Assembly: GCA_964347795.1 (NCBI GenBank) | Contig: CAYFZX010000001.1 | Location: 2,202 to 66,201, forward strand | DNA: 64,000 bases | From: an uncultured Methanomassiliicoccales archaeon | Lineage (GTDB): Archaea; Thermoplasmatota; Thermoplasmata; RBG-16-68-12; JAJISG01 | Direction: 5' to 3' | Shown here: in pieces, positions 1,899 through 47,886 of the stretch | Position numbering within the stretch: position 1 is the stretch's first letter | Layout of the letters: each line of letters opens with the position of its first letter | Position numbers and translations under genes: made by a program | Notes under the pieces: generated by a model | Databases searched by the model: none | What the model was told of the DNA's origin: nothing | The model's input: only the letters and a program-made list of their open reading frames with translations

Positions 1899-1980
1899 CG
1901 CCACCGGCGTAGAAAACGTTTCCCGAAGACCTGGACTCGACGCAGCCTCGGCAGTTGTCGAAATGGCGTTCGACAAAACC

Positions 1981-1986
1981 TTTAAT
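1981..1986 (+). promoter_or_regulatory. TTTAAT TATA-like box about 32 bp upstream of the hmgA ATG
   Basis: AT-rich hexamer in the divergent trmI/hmgA intergenic region. The spacing fits an archaeal leaderless or short-leader promoter. Confidence 0.3.
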
Positions 1987-2017
1987 GCCCGCCACAGATG
2001 CACGTGCCGGTGGCCGG

Positions 2018-3286
2018 ATGAGTACCTCGCAGGTATCGGGCTTCTACAAGAAGTCCATGGAGGCGCGACTCGACATCGTTAGGAAGGCCGGGAAGCTGAC
2101 GAAAGAAGAGGCTCAAGTCATGGCGAACACAGGCTCCCTCGAACCGGCCGTGGCGGACCGGATGATCGAGAACGTCGTCGGGAGCATGCCCCTGCCCCTA
2201 GGTATTGCCGTCAACTTCCAAATCAACGGCAGGGATTACCTGATTCCCATGGCCATTGAGGAGCCCTCCGTTGTTGCCGCGGCCAGCAACGCCGCGAAGA
2301 TGGCCCGCGTCGGGGGCGGCTTCCAGGCGCAGACGACCGACCCCGTGATGATCGGACAGATCCAAGTCGTCGACGTTCCCGACCCCGACGCTGCCAAGGT
2401 CCGGGTCCTAGAGGCCCGGGAGAAGATTCTGGAGGTCTGCAACGAAAGGGACCCGGTTCTCGTGAAGTTTGGAGGCGGGGCACGAGACGTGGAAGCCCGA
2501 GTCATCCAGACGCCTCGGGAGCCCATGCTCGTCGTCCACATCCTCGTGGACTGCCGGGACGCGATGGGGGCCAACGCCGTCAACACCATGGCCGAGGCCG
2601 TAGCTCCCCTCATCGAGGAACTCTCCGGCGGACGGGTGTACTTGAGGATAATCTCCAATCTCGCCGTGAAGAGGCTCGCCCGCGCCACGGCCACCTTCGC
2701 CCAGGACGCCATCGGCGGGGAAGAAGTGGTGGAGGGGATCCTTCGCGCCTATGCCTTTGCGGCAGCGGATCCGTACCGGTGTGCTACCCACAACAAGGGG
2801 ATTATGAACGGGATTGACGCCGTGGTCATCGCCACGGGCAACGATTGGCGGGCCATCGAGGCAGGGGCCCACTCTTATGCCGCGTTGGGCGGCCGCTACA
2901 AGCCCCTCACTGTCTGGGAGAAGGACTCGAAGGGAGACCTCGTGGGGTCGATCGAGGTGCCGATGGCCGTCGGCCTCGTCGGCGGGGCCACCGCAACCCA
3001 CCCGACGGCGAAGGCCAACGTGAAGCTCTTGGGGGTCAAGACTGCCTCCGAGTTGGCTCAAGTCGTCGCCGCCGTCGGACTTGCCCAGAACTTCGCAGCC
3101 TTGAGGGCTCTCGCCACGGAGGGCATCCAGAGAGGTCACATGTCTCTCCATGCCAGGAACATCGCGGTGATGGCCGGGGCAGAAGTCGACGAGGTGGATG
3201 ACGTGGTCAAGCGACTCCTGGCTGAGAAAGTCATCCGGGTCGATCGAGCTCAGGAAATACTCCAGGAAATGCGGGGCGAGAAGTGA
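2018..3286 (+). CDS. hmgA: HMG-CoA reductase (class I, archaeal)
   Basis: [21 protein letters not shown]...[41 protein letters not shown]... shows the conserved HMGR N-terminus and catalytic core. The start is the internal ATG at 2018. Confidence 0.9.
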
Positions 3287-14183: not shown

Positions 14184-15428
14184 TCACTTGTTGGAGCCGC
14201 CATGGGACAGCTGCAAGAAAAGGTCGAGATAGTCCTTCAAGTGTCTCGTTATGAGGAAGTTCTTCCTCACGTGGGCCCTGCCCGCCTCTCCCATCCTCCG
14301 TCTGAGACCTTCATCTTCAAAAAGCCGAATCGTCCGATCGATCAATGTTGCGACTTCCTCTGCGAGGTAACCAGTCTTGCCGTCAATTACCTGGAGCGGG
14401 ATTCCGCCCGACTTCCAGGCGACGACGGGGGCCCGCTTCCACAGGGCCTCGGCCACGACTAGTCCAAAGCCCTCCCGTAACGATTTGAGCATCGACACCT
14501 CGCTGCAACGTTGAAAGGCATTGACGTGGACGCTGTCAATCCCGTGCTCATCGGTGAGGAATTTGATGTTCGGGTCCCCGTCCGCCTTCTCCATGGTCTT
14601 CTCATAGTACTCCCACCCCTCTGGATCATCAAGAGCCATGGCGGTTATGAAGAGCAGCTGAAGACCTTCAACGCGCTTCCTAATCTCCCGGTACACATCG
14701 ATGGTCCCCAGGGGGTCTTTCCAGGGGTCAAAGCGGGCAACGCAGCAAATCGATGGCCTATCGGGATCAACGCCATACTGCTCCGCGATGGACCGTATCT
14801 CCTCAGGAGCTACAGGACGGTTCTTCGGGGAGAGAGGGTCAATGCTGGGGTGGATGACCACGGGATTCTTCAGGTTCAGGGTGGACGGGAAGTACTCCTC
14901 AAGGCTGTAGATGGAGGCGTCGTACTCTGGCAGGAAGCGACCGAGGAAGTCCATGCACTTCGAATTGGCGTTCGTAAGCTGGATGTGGGAACGCCAGATC
15001 CACTTACCCTCAATCTCTAGCTCCTTGATCAGGGAAGCGGGTTGCGGGTCGTGGACCACGATGTAGTCCCAGCCATCCTCCACGTCTGCCGCGTTTCTGT
15101 GGTTGACCTCCAGGTAGTGCTCCCGCATCGCCTTCGAGATGACGATTTCGGCGCCCTGGAGACAATTGTGAAGGCTTTTCGTGGTCTTGAAGAAGTCATC
15201 GTCTCCGTCCAAAACCATCCAGTGAGCGTCCAGACCCAGGTCCCTCATCAGTGGGACCAGGGTGGAGAGCATCTCGGCCACGCCGCCCCCGAGTGGCGTC
15301 GCATTGATGTGGAGCACTCGACTTCCAGAGAGAGAGTCTGCGGTGGACTTCAAGTCGTGAAGAGACTCTTCGCTTACGATACCCCTGTAATCGTCGATGA
15401 ATCTGTTGTCGACGCGCACACGCTGCAT
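14184..15428 (-). CDS. treT: Trehalose glycosyltransferring synthase TreT (GT4)
   Basis: Blocks are very similar to Thermococcus TreT: LHINATPLGGGVAEML, VVHDPQPASLI, NAFQRCSEVSMLKSLREGFGLVVAEALWK, RKNFLITRHLKDYLDLF. The start is the internal ATG at 15428. Confidence 0.85.
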   Translation of the reverse strand: MQRVRVDNRFIDDYRGIVSEESLHDLKSTADSLSGSRVLHINATPLGGGVAEMLSTLVPLMRDLGLDAHWMVLDGDDDFFKTTKSLHNCLQGAEIVISKAMREHYLEVNHRNAADVEDGWDYIVVHDPQPASLIKELEIEGKWIWRSHIQLTNANSKCMDFLGRFLPEYDASIYSLEEYFPSTLNLKNPVVIHPSIDPLSPKNRPVAPEEIRSIAEQYGVDPDRPSICCVARFDPWKDPLGTIDVYREIRKRVEGLQLLFITAMALDDPEGWEYYEKTMEKADGDPNIKFLTDEHGIDSVHVNAFQRCSEVSMLKSLREGFGLVVAEALWKRAPVVAWKSGGIPLQVIDGKTGYLAEEVATLIDRTIRLFEDEGLRRRMGEAGRAHVRKNFLITRHLKDYLDLFLQLSHGGSNK

Positions 15429-15532
15429 GGGTTGCCTCCACGCTGAATGTCGACACCCAAGCAAGGAAGGATTATGAGGGTTTTCCTGGGCGCAGCAAAG
15501 GTTATTGTACTGGGAAGATAGGGGGCCTGTAC

Positions 15533-16339
15533 ATGGCAGTGAATCCACCTGACGCGTTGGACAACCTAGAGAGTCTTCGCTACCTCAAGGAGAGACCCGC
15601 CAGGACCGGTATCTTCCTTGACCTTGATGGGACCCTGAGCCCGATCGTCGACGATCCGGACGAGGTCCAACTGCCGTCCGCAACTCGACAGTATCTCCAG
15701 GGGCTGTCAGCCCGCTACCGCGCGGTTGTGATCATCTCTGGTAGGGCTGCCTCCGCCTTGGTGAACCTTGTAAACCTGCCCTCCATAATGTACGTGGGAA
15801 ACCACGGGTTGGAGATAGTCAATGAAGCGGAGAGGAGGGTCCTCCTCCCCCCCGCGGTTGCCGATAGAATGAGGGCGATGGGCGAGGAGCTGAAGGCGCG
15901 GGTCCATTGCGAGGGCGCCCTGCTGGAGCTAAAGGAGTTGAGTCACGCCATTCATTATCGCCGGGCGACGGATCTCGAGAAGGCGAGGGATTGCATAATG
16001 GAATCGTTGGCCAAGATGGACCTCAGCGGAGCCCGAATCACCGAAGGAAAGATGCTGGTCCAGCTTCGACCCGACTATCCTCTCGACAAGGGGCGAGCCC
16101 TCGAGGCAATAGTCGCCCAGGAGGAGATCCGTCAGGTCCTCTACGCGGGAGACGATACGACGGACTTGGACGCCTTCCGCTCGATAGAAACCGCTCGACG
16201 GAAGGGAGTGATTGCGGGTCACACCATCTGCGTCCGCCACCTCGACACACCGGACGAATTGCTGAGCACTGCGGATCTCACCGTGGAGGGTCCGGAGGGA
16301 ATGCAGCACCTCCTCGGGTGGCTATTGTCCAATCGCTAA
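15533..16339 (+). CDS. otsB: Trehalose-6-phosphate phosphatase (HAD superfamily)
   Basis: HAD motif I FLDLDGTL, a TPP-like core and the GDDTTD motif. Confidence 0.8.
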   Translation: MAVNPPDALDNLESLRYLKERPARTGIFLDLDGTLSPIVDDPDEVQLPSATRQYLQGLSARYRAVVIISGRAASALVNLVNLPSIMYVGNHGLEIVNEAERRVLLPPAVADRMRAMGEELKARVHCEGALLELKELSHAIHYRRATDLEKARDCIMESLAKMDLSGARITEGKMLVQLRPDYPLDKGRALEAIVAQEEIRQVLYAGDDTTDLDAFRSIETARRKGVIAGHTICVRHLDTPDELLSTADLTVEGPEGMQHLLGWLLSNR

Positions 16340-16510: not shown

Positions 16511-17389
16511 GTGAAGGCTGCATTGTACGCTCGCGTTTCCACAGAGGATCAAGCCAAAGAGGGCTTCTCTCTGGACGCCCAGCTTGACCGGCTCCGATCC
16601 TACTGTGACGCCAGGGGCTGGGAAGCTGTCGATGAGTACGTTGACGACGGCTACTCAGGAAGAGACGAGGCGAGGCCGGCATATACGAAAATGCTGGAGG
16701 AGAGGGAACGCTGGGACACGATCCTTGTCCTCAAGATGGATCGCATCCACCGGAACAGTCGAAACTTCATGGAAATGATGGATAGGCTGCGCTCTTGGGA
16801 GAAGGAGTTCACCAGCATGCAGGAGTCCTTGGACACGGGCACCGCGATGGGACGATTCGTCATGGACATCATACAGAGGATCGCTCAACTCGAGAGCGAA
16901 CAGATCGCTGAGAGAGTGTACATCGGCATGTATCAGAAGGCGAAGTCAGGGCAAGGACACCTGGGTTCGCCCGCCCCTTTGGGGTATCGATACGAGGGAG
17001 GCAGGCTGGTGGTAGACGAGGAGAAGGCCCCCTTTGTGCAGGAAGTCTTCCGCAGGTATCTTCAGAGAAACCAACCCCTGCAATGGATCAGTGTCGACCT
17101 CACCCGCAAACTCCGCGGAAGGAGCTGGTCCATATGGTCTGTCCGTTATCTTCTGCAAAATCCCATCTACGCGGGATTTCTCTACTGGGATGGGATTCTG
17201 ACGAAAGGCGACCATGAGCCCCTAGTGAGTCCTCACGAGTACGAGCAGGTATTGCTGTCCTTCATCGAACGGACCCACGCGGATTCGAGCAGGGAGAAGC
17301 TGGAGAGACTGCTCGCCGGCGTTCGGGAGGCGACGGAAGAAGAGAACGGATACCAACAGACTCACGAGGCGGTGGCAGATGAAGTGTGA
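16511..17389 (+). CDS. Large serine recombinase (resolvase catalytic domain + recombinase domain)
   Basis: N-terminus ALYARVSTEDQ with the catalytic Ser, ...LVLKMDRIHRN, then a recombinase domain (YLLQNPIYAGFLYW). GTG start. Confidence 0.8.
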   Translation: MKAALYARVSTEDQAKEGFSLDAQLDRLRSYCDARGWEAVDEYVDDGYSGRDEARPAYTKMLEERERWDTILVLKMDRIHRNSRNFMEMMDRLRSWEKEFTSMQESLDTGTAMGRFVMDIIQRIAQLESEQIAERVYIGMYQKAKSGQGHLGSPAPLGYRYEGGRLVVDEEKAPFVQEVFRRYLQRNQPLQWISVDLTRKLRGRSWSIWSVRYLLQNPIYAGFLYWDGILTKGDHEPLVSPHEYEQVLLSFIERTHADSSREKLERLLAGVREATEEENGYQQTHEAVADEV

Positions 17390-18068
17390 GCGGTGCTGGT
17401 CCGAGGACGAAGTGGATGCACACTGTGCTCCTACTGGACCTCACGACTCAATCGCCTTGTGTCGTGCTTGTCGAGCAGTGGCCCCGAAAGATCCCGTCCT
17501 CTTCGAGAAGATGTTCCTCCAGTTCGCCACGCGGAAGGAGCTGATGCGTCACTTCGATGCGGAGGAAGAGGCGGAGGCCTTGCGCAAGTGGTGCACTGAC
17601 GTGGGCATGGAAATTGGGAAGCTTGGAGCAACCCTTGCCCAAGAGAGCACAGACATGGGTCTGCTTTCGTCACCCAGCCCCTTCGCGGGAGAGACGCCGT
17701 CACAAACGCCCTATGGTTACGCATCCAAGGGAAAGGGTCTCGTGCCTTCTCCCATCGAGGCCGAGGTGATTCGTAGCGTGTTCGACCTCTACCTCCGGGG
17801 CAAGAGCCTCCAAGAGATCCGACAGCTATTGAACAATGCTCAAGTCCCTTCACCGAGGGGGGGCGGTTGGCACCGTTCCACTATCCGATACATCTTGCGC
17901 AACCCGCTCTACGCAGGATCCCGTAGATGGAGAGGCGTTCTCAGAGAGGACTCGCATCGTGCGATAATCGATCCCGACCACTTCAATCAGGTACAGATGA
18001 TGCTGTCGCAGCGCTGCCGAAGGCCCGAACAGAGGGGAGTAGGGGCCGCTCAGTTACGAGTGGTTTGA
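17379..18068 (+). CDS. Zinc-ribbon plus recombinase-domain protein (second, resolvase-less copy of the serine-recombinase accessory domains)
   Basis: N-terminal CxxC...C...CxxC cluster, then EAEVIRSVFDLYLRGKSLQEIRQLL...YILRNPLYAG, which parallels the recombinase domain of the upstream gene. It overlaps that gene by 11 nt. Confidence 0.6.
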   Translation: MKCERCWSEDEVDAHCAPTGPHDSIALCRACRAVAPKDPVLFEKMFLQFATRKELMRHFDAEEEAEALRKWCTDVGMEIGKLGATLAQESTDMGLLSSPSPFAGETPSQTPYGYASKGKGLVPSPIEAEVIRSVFDLYLRGKSLQEIRQLLNNAQVPSPRGGGWHRSTIRYILRNPLYAGSRRWRGVLREDSHRAIIDPDHFNQVQMMLSQRCRRPEQRGVGAAQLRVV

Positions 18069-23998: not shown

Positions 23999-24544
23999 AT
24001 GCCCACTCGGAAGGCCCTCTGCCTTACCGGCATGCCAGGTTGCGGGAAGGAGGAGTTTCTTGCCGTGGCCTCCAAGGCCGGCTTCACGGTGATCCGAATG
24101 GGCGATGTCGTGAGGGAGGGAGCAGCAAGGAGAGGGATTCGGCCTTCCGATGAGGGCGTTGGTGGCCTTGCCGATGACGAGCGGAGGATTTACGGTCCCG
24201 ACGTATGGGCGAGGAGGACGCTTGAGCGTGTGGCGGCCGACCAGACGATAATTGACGGTGTCCGAAGCATGGATGAAGTAGCCCACTTCCAGGAAAGCTT
24301 TGGGCGCCACCTCGCCGTCGTTGCCGTGCACGCCTCCCCTCAGACGCGTCACAAGAGGATAGCGAAACGGGGTCGAGAGGACGACGTGTTGAGTGAGGAG
24401 GACTTCCACCAGCGAGATCGCAGAGAGCTGAGATGGGGGCTGGGCCAGGTGATCGCCCTGGCGGACTACGTGATTGTCAACGAGGGTTCCCTTGAGAAGT
24501 TCCACAAGGAGGCTCAGCGGGTCCTCCGAAATGTCTTCGGGTAG
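23999..24544 (+). CDS. P-loop nucleotide kinase (UPF0200-like, adenylate/dephospho-CoA kinase fold)
   Basis: Walker A LTGMPGCGKEEF. About 180 aa. It has the conserved archaeal pairing with the UPF0201 gene downstream. Confidence 0.6.
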   Translation: MPTRKALCLTGMPGCGKEEFLAVASKAGFTVIRMGDVVREGAARRGIRPSDEGVGGLADDERRIYGPDVWARRTLERVAADQTIIDGVRSMDEVAHFQESFGRHLAVVAVHASPQTRHKRIAKRGREDDVLSEEDFHQRDRRELRWGLGQVIALADYVIVNEGSLEKFHKEAQRVLRNVFG

Positions 24545-24548
24545 TGCG

Positions 24549-24989
24549 ATGTTTCGTCGCATCGAGTTCAGGGTTCACTGCCACGCAACGGAGAAGGAAG
24601 AGAGAGTGTTGCGGGCCTTCACGCAGGTCAGTGGCGTTGACAACCCTGACGTACGGACGACGGAAGGGCATTACGGGAACCGAATCGCAGTCTTTACTGC
24701 AGTCGTCAAGGACTCCGAGGCCATCGACGAGTTCTGGCAGAGAGTGCGGGAAGCGAAGGAACTCGAGGAGGTCCTCAGGACCCTCGATCGCAGGGTCGAT
24801 GCTGACTGCCGCCTGTACCTCCGATTCGACAAGCAGGAAGCATACCTCGGCAGGGTCAGACTAGCCGATCACGACGACGTCATCGCAGCGAAGGCGAAGG
24901 TAGCCGCATATCCAGCCAAGCGGGAGAGAGCGCTGGAGATCGTCCGCGAGTACTTCGAGGGAGGACGAGCACATGGATCTCACTCGTGA
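24549..24989 (+). CDS. UPF0201/COG1325 predicted RNA-binding (exosome-associated) protein
   Basis: MFRRIEFRVHCHATEKEERVLRAF... has the family's typical N-terminus. The start is the internal ATG at 24549. Confidence 0.55.
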   Translation: MFRRIEFRVHCHATEKEERVLRAFTQVSGVDNPDVRTTEGHYGNRIAVFTAVVKDSEAIDEFWQRVREAKELEEVLRTLDRRVDADCRLYLRFDKQEAYLGRVRLADHDDVIAAKAKVAAYPAKRERALEIVREYFEGGRAHGSHS

Positions 24990-26136
24990 TCAGGAGCGCC
25001 TGCTCACCCACGGCACCGCCGCTGAGCGGAAGTCCATGGAACTCCTCGTCGCCCTGGGCGAGGTCTACGGCGCAAGCCGACTGATCCCCGTCACATCCGT
25101 TCATGTCTCCGGTGCGAGCTACAAAATCGTGGGAGAGGCTGGACTCGAGTTCCTGGAGGAGTTCTCCCAGACGGCCCGGGTGAAGGTTCGTACCACCGTC
25201 AATCCGCTAGGGATGGACCTTCAAGCGTGGAGCAGCATGAGGATCCCAGAGGATTTCGCCTCTCGACAGCTGCGAATCGTTGAAGCGTACCGCAGAATGG
25301 GTGCGGAGGAAACGTGGAGCTGCATACCCTACCAGATTGGAAACAGACCAGCCATGGGAGAGCATGTCGCGTGGGCTGAGTCTTCGGCGGCCATCTTCGC
25401 CAACTCCGTTCTGGGGGCAAGAACCAACAGGGAGGGAGGCCCCTCTGCCCTGGCCTCTGGAATCACCGGCTTGACCCCCAACTACGGCCTCCACCTTGAC
25501 AAGAACCGAACAGCCACCATCAGGGTAAGGGTGATCGCTTCCTTGAGCGGCTACGAGTTCTCCCTCCTGGGCCACCATCTGGGGAAGCTCCTCGGAAGTG
25601 GCGTCCCTCTCATCGAGGATATCAAGGGTCAGGAAGATGAACTCAAGGCCATGGGAGCGGGCATGGCCACGAGCAGCGACATTACCCTGTACCATGTCAA
25701 GGGCCTCACCCCGGAGTGGGAAACGGCGGAAGTCTCCGGCATAGAGACGGTGGAAGTCACCGAATCAGATCTGGAAGAGGCGAAAGCTCAGCTTCTTTCG
25801 GCAGAACACTATGAGCTCATTGCCTTCGGCTGTCCCCAGCTCTCGAGGCGGGAGCTGGAAGAGGTGGCCGACCTGATGGAGCGGGAGGAACCGAGAGTCC
25901 CTGTATGGGTCTTCACCTCGCGATTGATGGCCAAAGGTGCGGAGCGTGCGATCCAACGCATCCGAGCCATGGGAGGCACGGTGGTCTTTGACACCTGCCC
26001 AGAGGTAACCCCGCTTGACTTGATCGCTCACGAGGTGGGAAGCCCCTCAGCCAAGGCAGCAGTCTACCTCCCGGCGCTCTCGGGACAGCGCGTCCACATC
26101 GCGGATAGCAAGGAGTTGATGAGGAAAGAGAGATGA
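24973..26136 (+). CDS. Aconitase X catalytic (large) subunit, DUF521; likely phosphomevalonate dehydratase large subunit
   Basis: 387 aa DUF521/AcnX pattern, followed by a DUF126 (AcnX swivel) gene that overlaps it by 4 nt. Confidence 0.7.
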   Translation: MDLTRDQERLLTHGTAAERKSMELLVALGEVYGASRLIPVTSVHVSGASYKIVGEAGLEFLEEFSQTARVKVRTTVNPLGMDLQAWSSMRIPEDFASRQLRIVEAYRRMGAEETWSCIPYQIGNRPAMGEHVAWAESSAAIFANSVLGARTNREGGPSALASGITGLTPNYGLHLDKNRTATIRVRVIASLSGYEFSLLGHHLGKLLGSGVPLIEDIKGQEDELKAMGAGMATSSDITLYHVKGLTPEWETAEVSGIETVEVTESDLEEAKAQLLSAEHYELIAFGCPQLSRRELEEVADLMEREEPRVPVWVFTSRLMAKGAERAIQRIRAMGGTVVFDTCPEVTPLDLIAHEVGSPSAKAAVYLPALSGQRVHIADSKELMRKER

Positions 26137-26948
26137 GATTTGAGGCCAGGAAGATCTACGGTGGCCGAGTCAGCGGTGCAGCCCTCGTCTTGGAGAAACC
26201 TCTTTCGTTTCTTGGCGGCGTGGATCGAGAGACTGGTGAGCTCCTTGCGGAGAACAGCGATCTTAAGGGCACACCCGTCACCGGGAGGATTCTGGTCTTT
26301 CCCAGGGGCAAGGGAAGCACGGCAGGATCCTACGTTCTCTACTCTCTGAGTGTGAGGGGCAAAGCGCCAGCCGCCTTGGTGTGTCAGACGGCCGAAGCGG
26401 TCGTGGCCACGGGAGCCATCATCGGGGAGACGACGATGGTTGACGGCGTCCCGACTGATCTTTTCAGAACCGGCGACAAAATCCTCGTCGACGCAGACCG
26501 GGGGTATGTAGAGATTGAGGGGGTGCGACTCGCACCCGTCGTCACCGCCTTCCTCTACGAGGCCGGTGAGGTCCTTGTACTCAAGAGGAGCGAGGAAGTG
26601 GGCAGCTTCCCGGGCCGGTGGGCGGGAGTCTCAGGGTATATCGAAGGAGATGAAGGGGCGTTGGAGAGAGCGACAATTGAGATCAGAGAGGAGACAGGAA
26701 TCGATGATGCACGCCTCCTGAGCAAAGGGGAGACCGTCCTCGCGAGAGGCGGCAAAGATGACGTCATCTGGGAGGTGAACCCGTTCCTATTCGAAGTCAC
26801 ACGTCGCGATGTCACGATGGACTGGGAACACGTGGAGAACCGCTGGATCAAGCCTGAGGAGTTGAGGGGCTACCAGACCGTCCCGAAGTTGATGGAAGCC
26901 TTGGAGAGCGCCCTCGCTGGCCTCAGGAAGCCTTCGCCAAGCCGATAA
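26133..26948 (+). CDS. Aconitase X small (swivel) subunit, DUF126, fused to a C-terminal Nudix hydrolase domain
   Basis: N-terminal ~130 aa are DUF126 (LSFLGGVDRETGEL...GKGSTAGSYVLY...APAALVC). The C-terminus carries the Nudix box GVSGYIEGDEGALERATIEIREETGI. Confidence 0.7.
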   Translation: MRFEARKIYGGRVSGAALVLEKPLSFLGGVDRETGELLAENSDLKGTPVTGRILVFPRGKGSTAGSYVLYSLSVRGKAPAALVCQTAEAVVATGAIIGETTMVDGVPTDLFRTGDKILVDADRGYVEIEGVRLAPVVTAFLYEAGEVLVLKRSEEVGSFPGRWAGVSGYIEGDEGALERATIEIREETGIDDARLLSKGETVLARGGKDDVIWEVNPFLFEVTRRDVTMDWEHVENRWIKPEELRGYQTVPKLMEALESALAGLRKPSPSR

Positions 26949-29900
26949 TGATCCTCTCCTCCTCAACGTTCCAGCCCTTCACCAGGGAGCCCTTGGGTTT
27001 GCGCTGCACCAGGGAAAGATCCCTCGTCCTGGTCTCCGTGCAAATGTAGTCTCCCCACTCGTCGAAGTATGTCCTGAGGCGACTACTGGACTGGACTTCC
27101 GTCTCCACGTAGTCCTCGACGGAGAGGTCCAGGTCTTTCCTCATCTGCTGCACACGCCGGACCAGTTCGCGGGCGTATCCCTCGGACTCAATCTCCGGCG
27201 TGCGGCGGAAATCCATATAGACTACGCCCTTCGAAGTACCACCCTCCGAGAAGCCTTCGGGAAGGCGGTGCTCGAAGCCCACCATGTCCAAGGTGATCTG
27301 AATCGGCTTGCCCTTGATCTCAACCTCGTACGACCCTCTCTCCACCGCCTCTCTCACTACTCCGGGATCAGCTTTGGAGAGCGTGTCGAGAATCGCGGGG
27401 AGAAGGGACTTGTACCTCTTCCCGATGATCGGTTGAACCGGGGTCATGCCAAGGTCCAGCTCCGACCAGACCTCCTCTGGGCGGAGGATTTCCACCACCT
27501 TAGAGTTCATCTGGTCGAGCAGGATGTCCTTCATATCCTCCAGGGCCTTTTTCGTCGGCGTGTCGGTCGGCAGGAGGACGACACGGGCCACCGGCCATCG
27601 TAGCCTATAGCTCTTGGTCTGCCTGAGCCGACTGGCTTCCTCGACGAATGCCCTGGCGGTGGCCATCATCTCTTCTAGGGCCTCGTCTCTGAGTCCGGGA
27701 TCTGAGGAGGGCCAGTCCTCCATGTGCACCGTTGGGTGGGGGCCACCCAAGTCCTGGTAGATGGCCTCGGCCATGAACGGGGCGATAGGAGCAAGTAGCT
27801 TGGAGACCCCCATGAGGACATCATAGAGGACCCGGTAGGCACACAGCTTCTCGGAGCTCTCGCCCTCTATCCACGTCCTGTCACGGATAAGGCGGACGTA
27901 CCAGCGGGAGAGGTCCCTGACAATTAGGTCTTCCAGGCTTCTGGCCGCCCTGTGGAGGTTGTATGACGACAGCGCCTGCCCGACCTCACCCACGACCGCC
28001 TGCAACCTGCTCAACATCCACCTGTCCTCCGGCGCCATCTTCTCTCGGAGCCCCTCGAGAGGGTGTTTCGACGGATCAAAGGCGTCTAAGGACATGTAGA
28101 GGGTCGAGAAGCGGTGCACGTTCCAGAGGATGTTCAGGGTCCTATGGGCGTTCCTGACTTCATCCCAGAGGAAGGCGAAGTCATCCCAGGGGGGAGCCGC
28201 CTTCAGCTCGTAGAAACGGAGAGCGTCTCTACCATATTCTCTGGCCACGTCTTGGGGGGTTAGGGAGTCGCCCCTGCTCTTGGAGAAGGCCTCCTCTCCC
28301 TCGGGGGGCCAGACCCACCCATGCATGAGGACGCTATCATATGGACAACGGTCGAAGGCGACAACGCCCGCGCCCAATTGAGAGTAGAACCACCCCCTTG
28401 TCTGGTCGTGAGCTTCCGTGATCCAGGGAGATGGCCACCAGTGTCCGAACTCCTCTAGTCGTTTTGGATAGCCCAGGCTTGCCCACGAGCAGACGGCGGA
28501 ATCGAACCAGACGTCCAAGACGTCCTTCACGCGGGACATACGGCCTCCACACTCCTCGCAAGTGAGTTGGATGGTGTCGACCCAGGGCCTGTGGAGGTCC
28601 ATTCCTTCATCGTAGCCCAAGCCATCTCTGAGCTCCTCCGCGCCACCGACCACCCTGAGGTGGCCCTGCGGGCACTCCCATACAGGCAACGGAACGCCCC
28701 AGTAGCGCTGCCGGGATATGGTCCAATCCTTGGCGTTCAAAACCCAATCGTATTGACGGGCGCTCCCGGCCCAGTCGGGGGTCCACTGAATTCGCTGGAC
28801 CTCGGACAGCATCTTGTCCTTGAGCTTCGTCACCCGAACGAACCACTGGTTGGTGGCACGGTAGATAATAGGGGTTGAACATCGCCAGCAGTGGCCATAT
28901 CTGTGCACGAGGTCCTCCCTGTGGAAGAGGAGGCCTTTGGCTCGGAGGTCCTCGATGATCAAGTCGTTGGCATCCTTGGTCGTGATGCCTTCGTACTTCC
29001 CCCCCTCAGCGGTGAAGCGGCCTCCGTCGTCGATGGGGCTAAAGGGCTCCAACTGGTGTGCTCGTCCGATCTCGAAGTCTTCGGGTCCATGGCCGGGGGC
29101 TGTGTGAACGAGGCCTGTGAACTCCGTGGTGACCGTCTCCGAAGGGAGGACCCGGTGGAGCCATTCTCCGCCGAACGTGCCCTGGATGCTGACCTCTTCG
29201 AGGAGGGGATGCTGGTACTCAAGTCCCACCAGGTCAGTGCCCCGTGTCCTCCGCAATACCTCGTACTCCTCGATCCCTGCAGCCCCCATCACGGCCTCCA
29301 CGTTCTGGTCCACTATCCAGGCTGCCTCCTCCTTCTCATCGGCCCGAAAGCGAACCCATGCATAGGAGAATTCGGGGTTGACCGCGACGGCGAGATTCGC
29401 CGGAAGGGTCCAGGGGGTCGTGGTCCAGATGAGGAGGCTACCGGTCCCGTCCGTGAGCGGGAATCGCACGTAGATCGAGGGGTCTGTTTCATCCCAGAAC
29501 TCGATTTCATACCCAGCCACGGGGGTCTCGCAGCGGGGGCACCACTCAAGAGATCTCTGGGCCTGGGCAAGGAGCCCCCGCTCATGAGCCCTCTTAATGG
29601 TCCACCACGCGGACTCGATGTAGTCGTTGGTGATGGTCATGTACGGCTTGTCCCAATCCATCCAGACACCCAGGTCGGAGAACTGCTCCGACATCTTCTG
29701 GAGGCGCTCCAGAGCATAGCTTCGGCACTTCTCGATGAAATTGGCGACGCCGACTTCCTCTTCGATCTGTCTCTTGTCCGTGATGCCCAGTGTTCTCTCC
29801 ACGAGAACCTCGATGGGGAGACCGTGCATGTCGTAACCAGGCTGATCCCTGACGTTGAACCCTTTCATGCGGAGCCAGCGCAGGACCGTGTCCTTGATGA

Positions 29901-30087
29901 TCTTGTTTCGAGCGGTCCCGACGTGGACGCTTCCTGTCGTGTAGGGAGGCCCGTCGACGAAGGCGAACCGTTCGCCCTTCTCCCGATGCTTCTTCGTCTT
30001 CTCGTAGGCCTTGTTCTCGGCCCAGAGAGACGCCACTCGCTCCTCAAGCTCGGCTGCCCGATAACTCTCCTCGGCTTGCTTTATCAT
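26923..30087 (-). CDS. ileS: Isoleucyl-tRNA synthetase
   Basis: 1054 aa class I aaRS with an archaeal IleRS pattern (PPYTTGSVHVGTARNK, editing domain, KMS-like region, Zn-ribbon cysteines). Confidence 0.9.
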   Translation of the reverse strand: MIKQAEESYRAAELEERVASLWAENKAYEKTKKHREKGERFAFVDGPPYTTGSVHVGTARNKIIKDTVLRWLRMKGFNVRDQPGYDMHGLPIEVLVERTLGITDKRQIEEEVGVANFIEKCRSYALERLQKMSEQFSDLGVWMDWDKPYMTITNDYIESAWWTIKRAHERGLLAQAQRSLEWCPRCETPVAGYEIEFWDETDPSIYVRFPLTDGTGSLLIWTTTPWTLPANLAVAVNPEFSYAWVRFRADEKEEAAWIVDQNVEAVMGAAGIEEYEVLRRTRGTDLVGLEYQHPLLEEVSIQGTFGGEWLHRVLPSETVTTEFTGLVHTAPGHGPEDFEIGRAHQLEPFSPIDDGGRFTAEGGKYEGITTKDANDLIIEDLRAKGLLFHREDLVHRYGHCWRCSTPIIYRATNQWFVRVTKLKDKMLSEVQRIQWTPDWAGSARQYDWVLNAKDWTISRQRYWGVPLPVWECPQGHLRVVGGAEELRDGLGYDEGMDLHRPWVDTIQLTCEECGGRMSRVKDVLDVWFDSAVCSWASLGYPKRLEEFGHWWPSPWITEAHDQTRGWFYSQLGAGVVAFDRCPYDSVLMHGWVWPPEGEEAFSKSRGDSLTPQDVAREYGRDALRFYELKAAPPWDDFAFLWDEVRNAHRTLNILWNVHRFSTLYMSLDAFDPSKHPLEGLREKMAPEDRWMLSRLQAVVGEVGQALSSYNLHRAARSLEDLIVRDLSRWYVRLIRDRTWIEGESSEKLCAYRVLYDVLMGVSKLLAPIAPFMAEAIYQDLGGPHPTVHMEDWPSSDPGLRDEALEEMMATARAFVEEASRLRQTKSYRLRWPVARVVLLPTDTPTKKALEDMKDILLDQMNSKVVEILRPEEVWSELDLGMTPVQPIIGKRYKSLLPAILDTLSKADPGVVREAVERGSYEVEIKGKPIQITLDMVGFEHRLPEGFSEGGTSKGVVYMDFRRTPEIESEGYARELVRRVQQMRKDLDLSVEDYVETEVQSSSRLRTYFDEWGDYICTETRTRDLSLVQRKPKGSLVKGWNVEEERIIIGLAKAS

Positions 30088-47346: not shown

Positions 47347-47886
47347 ATGGCTGCGACGGAGAAGATGAAAGTCAAGGTCTGCCTCGTTGGTGAGGGGGCC
47401 GTAGGCAAGACTTGCCTCATCAGGCGGTTCATCCACGACGAGTTCGATGATCGTTACATCTCCACCCTCGGAGCCAAGGTGTCCAAGAAGGAGATTGTCG
47501 TGGACCACGGCTCCGGCGTTGAGGTCGACATGACCATCTGGGACATCATGGGAGAGAAGGGCTTCCGGGAGCTGCTGAAGGAAGCCTATTTCCATGGCGC
47601 CCAGGGAATCCTGGCCGTCTGCGATGTCACCAGGAAGGATACTCTCTACGACCTCCATGACTGGGTGAAGGCCGTGAACAAGGTGACGGGCGACATACCG
47701 ATTCACTTCCTCGCAAACAAGGTCGACTTGGAAGAGCAGGTCAGCTTCGATGAGAAGGATCTCGAGAAAGCGGCCAAGAAGTATACGGCGCCCTACATCT
47801 ACACTAGCGCAAAGACCGGTGAGAATGTCCAGGTTGCCTTCGAGAAGTTGGCGGACATGATCGCCAAACGCATGGTCGCCCCTTAG
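47347..47886 (+). CDS. Rab/Ras-like small GTPase, paralog 3 (Glu in G3)
   Basis: G1 LVGEGAVGKTCL, G3 WDIMGE, G4 NKVD, G5 TSAKTGENV. It has its own TATA (TTTATAAT at 47298-47305). Confidence 0.85.
   Translation: MAATEKMKVKVCLVGEGAVGKTCLIRRFIHDEFDDRYISTLGAKVSKKEIVVDHGSGVEVDMTIWDIMGEKGFRELLKEAYFHGAQGILAVCDVTRKDTLYDLHDWVKAVNKVTGDIPIHFLANKVDLEEQVSFDEKDLEKAAKKYTAPYIYTSAKTGENVQVAFEKLADMIAKRMVAP

Follow-up and report, generated by a model that had tools for sequence, protein, structure and literature searches.

The window analysed here, the whole of a 64-kb stretch of DNA from an uncultured Methanomassiliicoccales archaeon, contains adjacent genes for the two subunits of what we identify with high confidence as a phosphomevalonate dehydratase (PMDh), and the small subunit carries a Nudix hydrolase domain at its C-terminal end. 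Sequence comparisons lead us to lean, though only slightly, towards regarding this Nudix domain as an autonomous passenger and not as a mevalonate-pathway step or a dedicated valve. Autonomy is suggested because the conserved residues of the domain are identical in unrelated fusion contexts, because the domain outlives the loss or decay of its dehydratase partner, and because the positional anchor of the gene is isoleucyl-tRNA synthetase (IleRS), with isoprenoid genes not clustered around it. The same observations (standalone members and unrelated fusions of one subfamily, survival of dehydratase decay, no isoprenoid neighbours in the loci compared) turn against an earlier note on this DNA, which had proposed a built-in pathway step, phosphatase or valve. 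As a passenger, the domain would do the job of its whole subfamily, presumably the Mg-dependent splitting of a phosphoanhydride bond in some small soluble compound, for which the leading candidates would be nucleotides or dinucleotides of the NudI type, or phosphoribosyl pyrophosphate (PRPP) converted to ribose-1,5-bisphosphate (R15P). On this view, two genes next to each other beside IleRS would have fused, and a co-evolved domain interface involving Arg205 (R205) would then have locked the fusion in.

The gene pair and its assignment to PMDh

The large-subunit gene (24973..26136, plus strand; 387 amino acids) encodes an AcnX catalytic subunit of type IIb (PF04412, E 2.6e-132), with a GGAGG 8 nt 5' of its start. 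The following open reading frame (ORF), which encodes the small subunit and the Nudix domain (26133..26948, plus strand; 271 amino acids), overlaps it by the four bases of an ATGA start/stop (26133..26136, plus strand), so that both ORFs and the overlap stand as the earlier note had described them, and the three Pfam families that it named for a check, PF04412, PF01989 and PF00293, are all matched above their cut-offs. Residues 1-129 (26133..26519, plus strand) form the AcnX swivel domain, the PMDh small subunit proper, which matches PF01989 at residues 24-103 (E 8e-29) and the structure 7cnr_B (TK1248) at residues 3-128 (E 7e-39). The Nudix hydrolase domain spans residues 130-263 (26520..26921, plus strand) and matches PF00293 at residues 134-248 (E 6.9e-9; 36.3 bits, the cut-off being 21.1). 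The linker between the two domains measures about three residues, with no in-frame stop between them.

The archaeal mevalonate pathway has PMDh as its signature enzyme. The best match of the large subunit in the PDB is 7cnr_A, the PMDh large subunit of Thermococcus kodakarensis (TkPMDh), with E 5e-88 and 299 bits; bacterial cis-3-hydroxy-L-proline dehydratases reach about 175 bits. The small subunit gives the same picture, with 137 bits for its swivel part against TkPMDh and 58 bits against cis-3-hydroxyproline dehydratase. The large subunit has only three cysteines, each aligned to one of the cluster-ligand cysteines C110, C283 and C342 of TkPMDh (PMC8184944, PMC10040528): Cys117 (25321..25323, plus strand), the equivalent of Cys110 and a cysteine in 58/60 Thermoplasmata homologues; Cys287 (25831..25833, plus strand), the equivalent of Cys283 at the 'site 1' typical of PMDh; and Cys342 (25996..25998, plus strand), the equivalent of the Tk residue of the same number. 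The 'site C' cysteine of type-I enzymes (C-x-C) is absent, position 344 being Glu.

The residues that contact mevalonate 5-phosphate, taken from the TkPMDh complex 7CNS (PMC8184944), are largely conserved as well. In the small subunit, S62, T63 and L27 are kept; the first two lie in the substrate loop G59-K-G-S62-T63-A-G-S-Y67 (26307..26333, plus strand), which aligns to 7cnr_B and in which S62 corresponds to the catalytic Ser62(S) and T63 to the carboxylate contact (PMC8184944). G61, S62, T63, G65, S66 and Y67 are invariant across 33 fusion proteins (43-69% identity). In the large subunit, G47, S49, N77, E136, S137, S138, K361 and Y365 are kept, N77, E136, S137, K361 and Y365 matching Tk Asn79, Glu129, Ser130, Lys361 and Tyr365, and the contacts are preserved in about 58/60 Thermoplasmata homologues. 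A large-subunit homologue with 52% identity already carries the UniRef name 'Phosphomevalonate dehydratase large subunit'. The closeness to TkPMDh, the three-cysteine pattern and the conserved substrate contacts together underlie the high confidence, on sequence grounds, with which we assign the pair to PMDh, AcnX type IIb, as the note had supposed from the two-subunit archaeal architecture; PDB ranking, cysteines and substrate residues all rule out the hydroxyproline-dehydratase type (AcnX IIa). As a step of the archaeal mevalonate pathway, this [4Fe-4S] enzyme would turn mevalonate 5-phosphate into trans-anhydromevalonate 5-phosphate by dehydration.

One contact departs from the Thermococcus enzyme. 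The side chain of Tk Asn53(L), which touches the 5-phosphate, is replaced by Ile52 in the window (25126-25128), with the main-chain phosphate contacts G47, A48 and S49 kept. The position is Thr in 48/60 and Ile in 7/60 Thermoplasmata sequences and Asn in 6/6 unfused ones from Thermococcus and Odinarchaeota, so that this change in the phosphate pocket is lineage-specific and coincides with the Nudix fusion.

Among known systems, TkPMDh (TK1249/TK1248, PDB 7CNR/7CNS) and the PMDh of Aeropyrum pernix are encoded by adjacent large- and small-subunit genes, as in the window. TkPMDh shares about 50% identity with the window pair and matches it in the three cysteine ligands and the substrate contacts listed above, but the characterised T. 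kodakarensis and A. pernix enzymes lack the C-terminal Nudix domain of about 140 amino acids. The AcnX type-I (C-x-C) enzyme, of the same superfamily, shows that the swivel domain can bear a covalent fusion at its C-terminus; there, however, the partner of the swivel is its own large subunit, the enzyme has a [2Fe-2S] cluster and the substrate is another one, and the window protein scores much lower against it and lacks the site-C cysteine.

The fused small subunit across Thermoplasmata

Look-ups for exact copies of the window proteins retrieved no record. A search with the 271-amino-acid protein returned 575 relatives, and all 120 of the 120 clusters listed among them hold both domains (45-100% identity, 250-312 amino acids), which puts the fusion in at least 120 protein clusters; the named ones come from Thermoplasmata or from metagenome-assembled genomes (MAGs) of Methanomassiliicoccales. 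In a scan of one genome per prokaryotic species, about 73 species genomes, drawn from numerous independent assemblies, had the full-length fusion; among them are Methanomassiliicoccus, Methanomethylophilaceae, Methanoplasma, Methanoprimaticola, Saliniplasma and many other Thermoplasmata. In Thermococcus and Odinarchaeota only residues 1-129 find a match, the small subunit being unfused. An AcnX large-subunit gene lies directly upstream of the fusion gene in every locus with enough flank. To judge from these sequences, the fusion is the standard form of the small subunit across the class Thermoplasmata.

That the fusion is an artefact, for instance of a missed stop codon, or that the pair is of the hydroxyproline type after all, is therefore barely credible: the in-frame junction recurs in the independent assemblies and in all listed clusters, which also settles the question of conservation raised with the original observation, and PDB ranking, cysteines and substrate residues fit PMDh. 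The one case that could be conceived as an assembly error comes from a Methanomassiliicoccaceae MAG (L035, 4774-6780), where one in-frame ORF of 668 amino acids spans large subunit, swivel and Nudix; either this is a genuine triple fusion, or an indel has crept into a long-read assembly. Apparent single ORFs of this kind were seen at six loci, and the other five proved to be ORF-calling artefacts in high-GC DNA.

Other peculiarities were noted among the fusion proteins. A subclade (P0038, P0043, P0064 and P0075) has an added C-terminal Arg/Gly-rich tail of about 45 amino acids, a composition typical of nucleic-acid-binding tails. Two loci with the fusion gene and IleRS (L067, L068) are filed in bacterial bins, Acutalibacteraceae and Prevotella hominis, and are probably stray Methanomethylophilaceae contigs contaminating gut bacterial MAGs.

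To our knowledge, only unfused PMDh (Aeropyrum, Thermococcus, Methanosarcina) has been studied so far, and full-text literature searches brought up nothing that connects PMDh or anhydromevalonate with Nudix, or dimethylallyl phosphate (DMAP) or UbiX with the archaeal mevalonate pathway. The architecture is already visible in automatic annotation, for example as the JGI 'predicted aconitase with swiveling domain/...NUDIX family'.

The Nudix domain

The string GVSGYIEGDEGALERATIEIREETGI, quoted in the earlier note as the Nudix box, was located at residues 165-190. The box itself runs from G168 to I190 (26634..26702, plus strand) in the register G168-x5-E174-x7-[I182]-E183-I-R-E186-E187-T-G-I, with all four glutamates (E174, E183, E186, E187) and G189 present. 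The single departure is in the 'RE' pair, whose Arg is Ile182 here; position 182 varies across the family, which has a conserved Arg at 179. Across the 33 fusion proteins, E183, E186, E187, G168, S167, W163, R152, R205, E232 and W238 never vary, and conservation of E171 and E174 is 90% or more, so that the claim of an intact box is upheld by the alignment as far as the catalytic glutamates are concerned. Invariant Glu232 (26826..26828, plus strand), in the subfamily motif D-W-E-[HN], is a candidate general base.

The AlphaFold2 model of the domain has a confidence (pLDDT) of 95.4, and the model of the full-length small-subunit-Nudix protein reaches pLDDT 94 with a predicted TM score (pTM) of 0.87, with helix 176-188 present at the Nudix box. 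In this model, three residues separate the final strand of the swivel (125-128) from the opening strand of the Nudix domain (132-143), and the two domains are predicted to be one rigid body. Glutamate conservation and a confidently modelled fold together indicate a catalytically intact domain.

Foldseek matched the domain to 554 Nudix structures in the PDB (E<=1e-3; lowest E about 1e-10); the best were NudI, the uncharacterised MutT-like protein 3grn of M. mazei and BdRppH, at TM scores of 0.7-0.8. Profile searches of the PDB agreed (3grn 2.6e-14, NudI 3.3e-14, NudB 1e-5). NudI and, more distantly, NudB, both small single-domain Nudix enzymes, are thus the best characterised matches in sequence and structure. 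The NudI proteins of E. coli, Salmonella and Klebsiella (YfaO; 3oga, 3n77, 6dt3) share with the window domain the pre-box motif (V/S)FPGxWAxxSG. At about 26-30% identity to NudI and NudB, however, the window domain belongs to an archaeal subfamily with its own motifs HPFxF, DWE[HN] and TVPxL, and all its NCBIfam scores are far under the equivalog cut-offs; the NudI equivalog NF012016, for instance, scores 29.1 bits against a cut-off of 95, so that NudI is the nearest characterised relative and not an orthologue.

A role as type 1 isopentenyl-diphosphate isomerase (IDI) was considered and rejected: NF002995 scores 17.3 bits against a cut-off of 127, the glutamate box is intact, a conserved Cys is absent from the domain, and the sole frequent His of the family (216) is Asn in the window. 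The markers that Dunn and colleagues reportedly described in 1999 for the ADP-ribose, ApnA and NADH Nudix subfamilies are a Pro about 15 residues, a Tyr 16-18 residues, or the motif SQPWPFPxS after the box. The window sequence has R-G-G-K at 205-208 and the family consensus holds no such motif, so that the signatures of ADP-ribose pyrophosphatase, ApnA hydrolase and NADH pyrophosphatase are all missing.

The same Nudix subfamily in other contexts

When the Nudix domain was used as the sole query, 1822 of 1.84 billion cluster representatives matched it, and domain architectures were read from the best 150 (39-55% identity). Besides swivel+Nudix proteins, these 150 include 30 Nudix+IF-2B fusions, about 50 standalone forms and rare fusions with CinA/PncC, HAD, alpha/beta-hydrolase, DUF6390 or PF01877. 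A neighbour-joining tree separates two Nudix clades: clade A, into which the window domain falls, is swivel-associated, and clade B holds the IF-2B-fused and most standalone members. All groups nevertheless have in common R152, S153, W163, S167, G168, the box glutamates, HPFxF, D-W-E232, W238 and TVPxL, and the subfamily motifs LxxRS, GxWxx(V/I)SG, ExxEE, HPFxF, DWE[HN], W238 and TVPxL are all found in the window protein, except that H216 is Asn.

A residue that does distinguish the groups is Arg205 (26745..26747, plus strand), specific to Nudix domains with a swivel or swivel remnant. It is Arg in 100% of the swivel-fused and degenerate-swivel groups and variable in the IF-2B-fused and standalone groups, and in the true standalone members of clade A it is replaced by E, T or D. 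We had considered R205 as a new substrate determinant and dropped the idea, since these clade A members lose it. The residue follows the presence of the swivel and is therefore a probable inter-domain contact.

The Nudix+IF-2B proteins are about 440 amino acids long, with the Nudix domain at the N-terminus (P0124, P0134, P0136 and P0143 among them), and the named ones are 'NUDIX domain-containing protein' entries from Nitrososphaerales MAGs. The best match of the IF-2B partner is ribose-1,5-bisphosphate isomerase (TIGR00511), and R15P-isomerase-like proteins are the strongest association of the Nudix subfamily overall. These fusions of Nitrososphaerales and other archaea form a sister clade with 40-54% identity to the window Nudix and the same conserved residues, and they resemble the window protein in that the enzyme joined to Nudix has a small phosphorylated metabolite as its substrate; they differ in the order of the domains, the isomerase partner, the absence of R205, a longer 205-210 loop and a conserved Asp206. 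Conversion of PRPP to R15P by a Nudix enzyme has been proposed in the context of R15P isomerase (PMC7300363; bioRxiv 10.1101/2019.12.22.886556). The Nudix+IF-2B fusion, itself seemingly undescribed, would fit the proposed PRPP, R15P and ribulose-1,5-bisphosphate route; the first reaction has no obvious link to PMDh.

Nudix domains without an adjacent dehydratase

Twenty of the best 150 Nudix-search representatives have a degenerate swivel. Their N-terminal portion of about 100 amino acids is a decayed swivel domain (hhalign probability 98%, E 6.5e-14) in which the catalytic loop SFLGGVD...GKGSTxGSY is lost, and their Nudix domain is intact. One such representative has 916 relatives at E<1e-10, the named members all being Thermoplasmata, which also disposes of a haloarchaeal origin hinted at by an HTH_10 neighbour, and in the neighbour-joining tree the degenerate forms nest inside the fused clade. 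In the five contexts examined (L084 7881-8624; L085 7989-8738; L086 1243-2004; L089 10001-10717; L090 1832-2548), the gene adjoins a divergently transcribed luciferase-like (PF00296) oxidoreductase in all, and neither the AcnX large subunit nor IleRS lies beside it in any of the five. One of the degenerate-form loci shares its 1.8-Mb contig with a thermopsin gene. In Thermoplasmatales, mevalonate is processed by another route, which does not involve PMDh (PMC10040528). The degenerate-swivel family may be a molecular fossil of PMDh loss.

A standalone Nudix of clade A (P0129) occupies the same slot as the fusion gene of Methanomassiliicoccales: it is convergent with IleRS, followed by FEN1 and ribulose-phosphate epimerase, and has ribosomal protein genes upstream and no AcnX at the locus.

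Gene neighbourhood

In the window, the fusion gene converges on the IleRS gene (26923..30087, minus strand) with a 26-nt overlap of their 3' ends. IleRS is adjacent in 50/81 related loci, and mining of these 81 loci for conserved neighbours yielded only the AcnX large subunit, IleRS, FEN1 and housekeeping genes. No isoprenoid gene was found next to the fusion gene in the window or in about 75 related loci. The positional anchor of the Nudix-bearing gene is IleRS and not AcnX.

Upstream, the gene pair is packed tightly with two further genes. A UPF0200 / AdkA-like P-loop kinase-like gene (23999..24544, plus strand; AAA_17; 3h0k SSO1041 and 3lw7, E about 2e-32) and a PF01877 gene (UPF0201, 'RNA_binding'; 24546..24989, plus strand; E 1.7e-33), which resembles the hypothetical proteins 2ogk and 2wny and whose start at 24546 is backed by the orthologue in another locus (L001), precede the PMDh large subunit and the small-subunit-Nudix gene; the first two of these four genes stand 1 nt apart, and the next two junctions overlap by 17 and 4 nt. 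Solved structures exist for both the UPF0200 and PF01877 families. The pair stands beside the locus in only about 14/75 related loci. A protein fusing PF01877 to Nudix (P0137) has an N-terminus 37% identical to the window PF01877 protein (E 3e-10). Origin of the fusion from the upstream PF01877 gene was considered and set aside, P0137 being a single representative in the other Nudix clade.

The gene of HMG-CoA reductase, 22 kb away (1955..3286, plus strand; PF00368, E 3.4e-117), is the sole further member of the mevalonate pathway that turned up in the window; it had been placed at 2018-3286, and its identity is confirmed, position 2018 being an internal ATG of an ORF that extends back to 1955. 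Pfam scans of the 36 window ORFs found no mevalonate kinase, isopentenyl phosphate kinase (IPK), UbiX or UbiD.

What the fused Nudix domain might do

An unlikely though serious alternative to the passenger is that the Nudix domain hydrolyses isopentenyl diphosphate (IPP) and/or dimethylallyl diphosphate (DMAPP) to isopentenyl phosphate (IP) or DMAP, either as a valve opposing IPK or as a supply of DMAP for UbiX. UbiX makes the prenylated FMN cofactor, with DMAP as prenyl donor, for the UbiD-like anhydromevalonate phosphate decarboxylase, the next enzyme of the pathway. Several observations that favour this possibility weigh at the same time against a mere passenger. A fusion to a pathway enzyme kept class-wide, with a rigid junction, exceeds what a neutral accident needs and suggests a benefit; the nearest characterised families, NudI and more distantly NudB, convert DMAPP to DMAP, the UbiX substrate, in vitro in the E. 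coli proteins, according to a passage of PMC12359138 that cites Wang 2018; and plants pair Nudix proteins of the AtNUDX1/3 type, which turn IPP and DMAPP into IP and DMAP, with an IPK that reverses the reaction, setting IP/IPP ratios (PMC8248349), although these plant proteins are separate, cytosolic and unfused to a pathway enzyme, so that the likeness is conceptual and not one of sequence. The replacement of Tk Asn53(L) by Thr or Ile in the fused lineages also hints at co-adaptation. Further points tell against the passenger: the 205-210 loop differs between the clades, and common residues do not prove a common substrate; the missing AcnX large subunit of the degenerate forms is shown for adjacent genes; IPK-like and IDI2-like genes lie 9 kb from the degenerate form in one genome; and the function of the whole Nudix subfamily is read from sequences and models. 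What stands against IPP/DMAPP hydrolysis is that the conserved residue set is unchanged in the R15P-isomerase-like fusions and standalone forms, that the only clade-specific residue, R205, behaves like an interface contact, and that the Nudix domain is kept with a dead swivel, away from any adjacent large subunit and alone in the same slot. Isoprenoid neighbours are lacking in the loci compared, other archaea with the same pathway have unfused subunits, and the literature search joined no PMDh or anhydromevalonate to a Nudix enzyme. A more specific form of this alternative, in which a dedicated isoprenoid-diphosphate phosphohydrolase rides on PMDh and the degenerate forms are its surviving half in Thermoplasmata that replaced the dehydratase route, we hold to be doubtful.

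Two other explanations were weighed. It is very improbable, in our view, that the domain acts on RNA or nucleotide ends, as an RppH-like pyrophosphohydrolase or decapping enzyme whose ties would be to the UPF0200 and PF01877 genes instead of AcnX. BdRppH ranks among the closest matches in both structure and sequence (TM 0.76-0.82), a PF01877+Nudix fusion exists, the four genes are tightly packed in the window and some fused proteins carry Arg/Gly-rich tails; yet Nudix folds are too similar for a specific RppH match, the PF01877 fusion is one among the best 150 representatives and belongs to the other Nudix clade, and the adjacency of UPF0200 and PF01877, two proteins without an assigned function, is confined to the minority of loci given above. 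About as improbable, finally, is a mainly structural or regulatory part, in which the domain would help PMDh to dimerise or would sense a ligand for it, and hydrolysis would come second. The rigid junction and confident two-domain model, the covariation of R205 with the swivel and the retention of a swivel remnant with Nudix in the degenerate family would suit it, but the catalytic glutamates are invariant over a very deep family that includes partnerless forms, which argues for selection on catalysis.

Whichever of these holds, the comparison defines a coherent, wholly uncharacterised archaeal Nudix subfamily with degenerate-swivel and R15P-isomerase-like derivatives, and the recurrent fusion to an R15P-isomerase-like partner makes its substrate directly testable. 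The Nudix-bearing small subunit extends across the class, which includes methanogens of the human and animal gut (Methanomassiliicoccales, Methanomethylophilaceae). If the domain is a passenger, the system would be a clean case of a neighbour-gene fusion that became structurally locked in, and the decayed swivel, as a molecular fossil, may mark lineages that gave up the dehydratase route. If it acts on IPP or DMAPP, archaeal isoprenoid synthesis would gain its first device for control or cofactor supply that is attached to the pathway, of use in engineering the ATP-saving archaeal route; a dedicated phosphohydrolase would provide the long-sought DMAP donor for prenyl-FMN, or form with IPK an archaeal counterpart of the plant IP/IPP valve.

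Other features of the window

Two adjacent ORFs at 16511-18068 resemble a split large serine recombinase (Resolvase and Recombinase domains, then Recombinase). They lie inside a stretch of lower GC content at 14-20 kb (0.57 compared with about 0.61) and adjoin genes for the trehalose synthase TreT (14184-15548, minus strand) and a trehalose phosphatase (15533-16339), and the stretch may be the remnant of an integrated element. Between 4574 and 13242 lie genes for a glycerate kinase (MOFRL), an ILVD/EDD-family dehydratase, an aldehyde dehydrogenase, a glucose dehydrogenase and a GH15 glycosidase, a cluster consistent with a non- or semi-phosphorylative Entner-Doudoroff-type module of sugar oxidation. 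A small GTPase of the Ras/Roc family is encoded at 47347-47886 (PF00071, E 2.5e-38).

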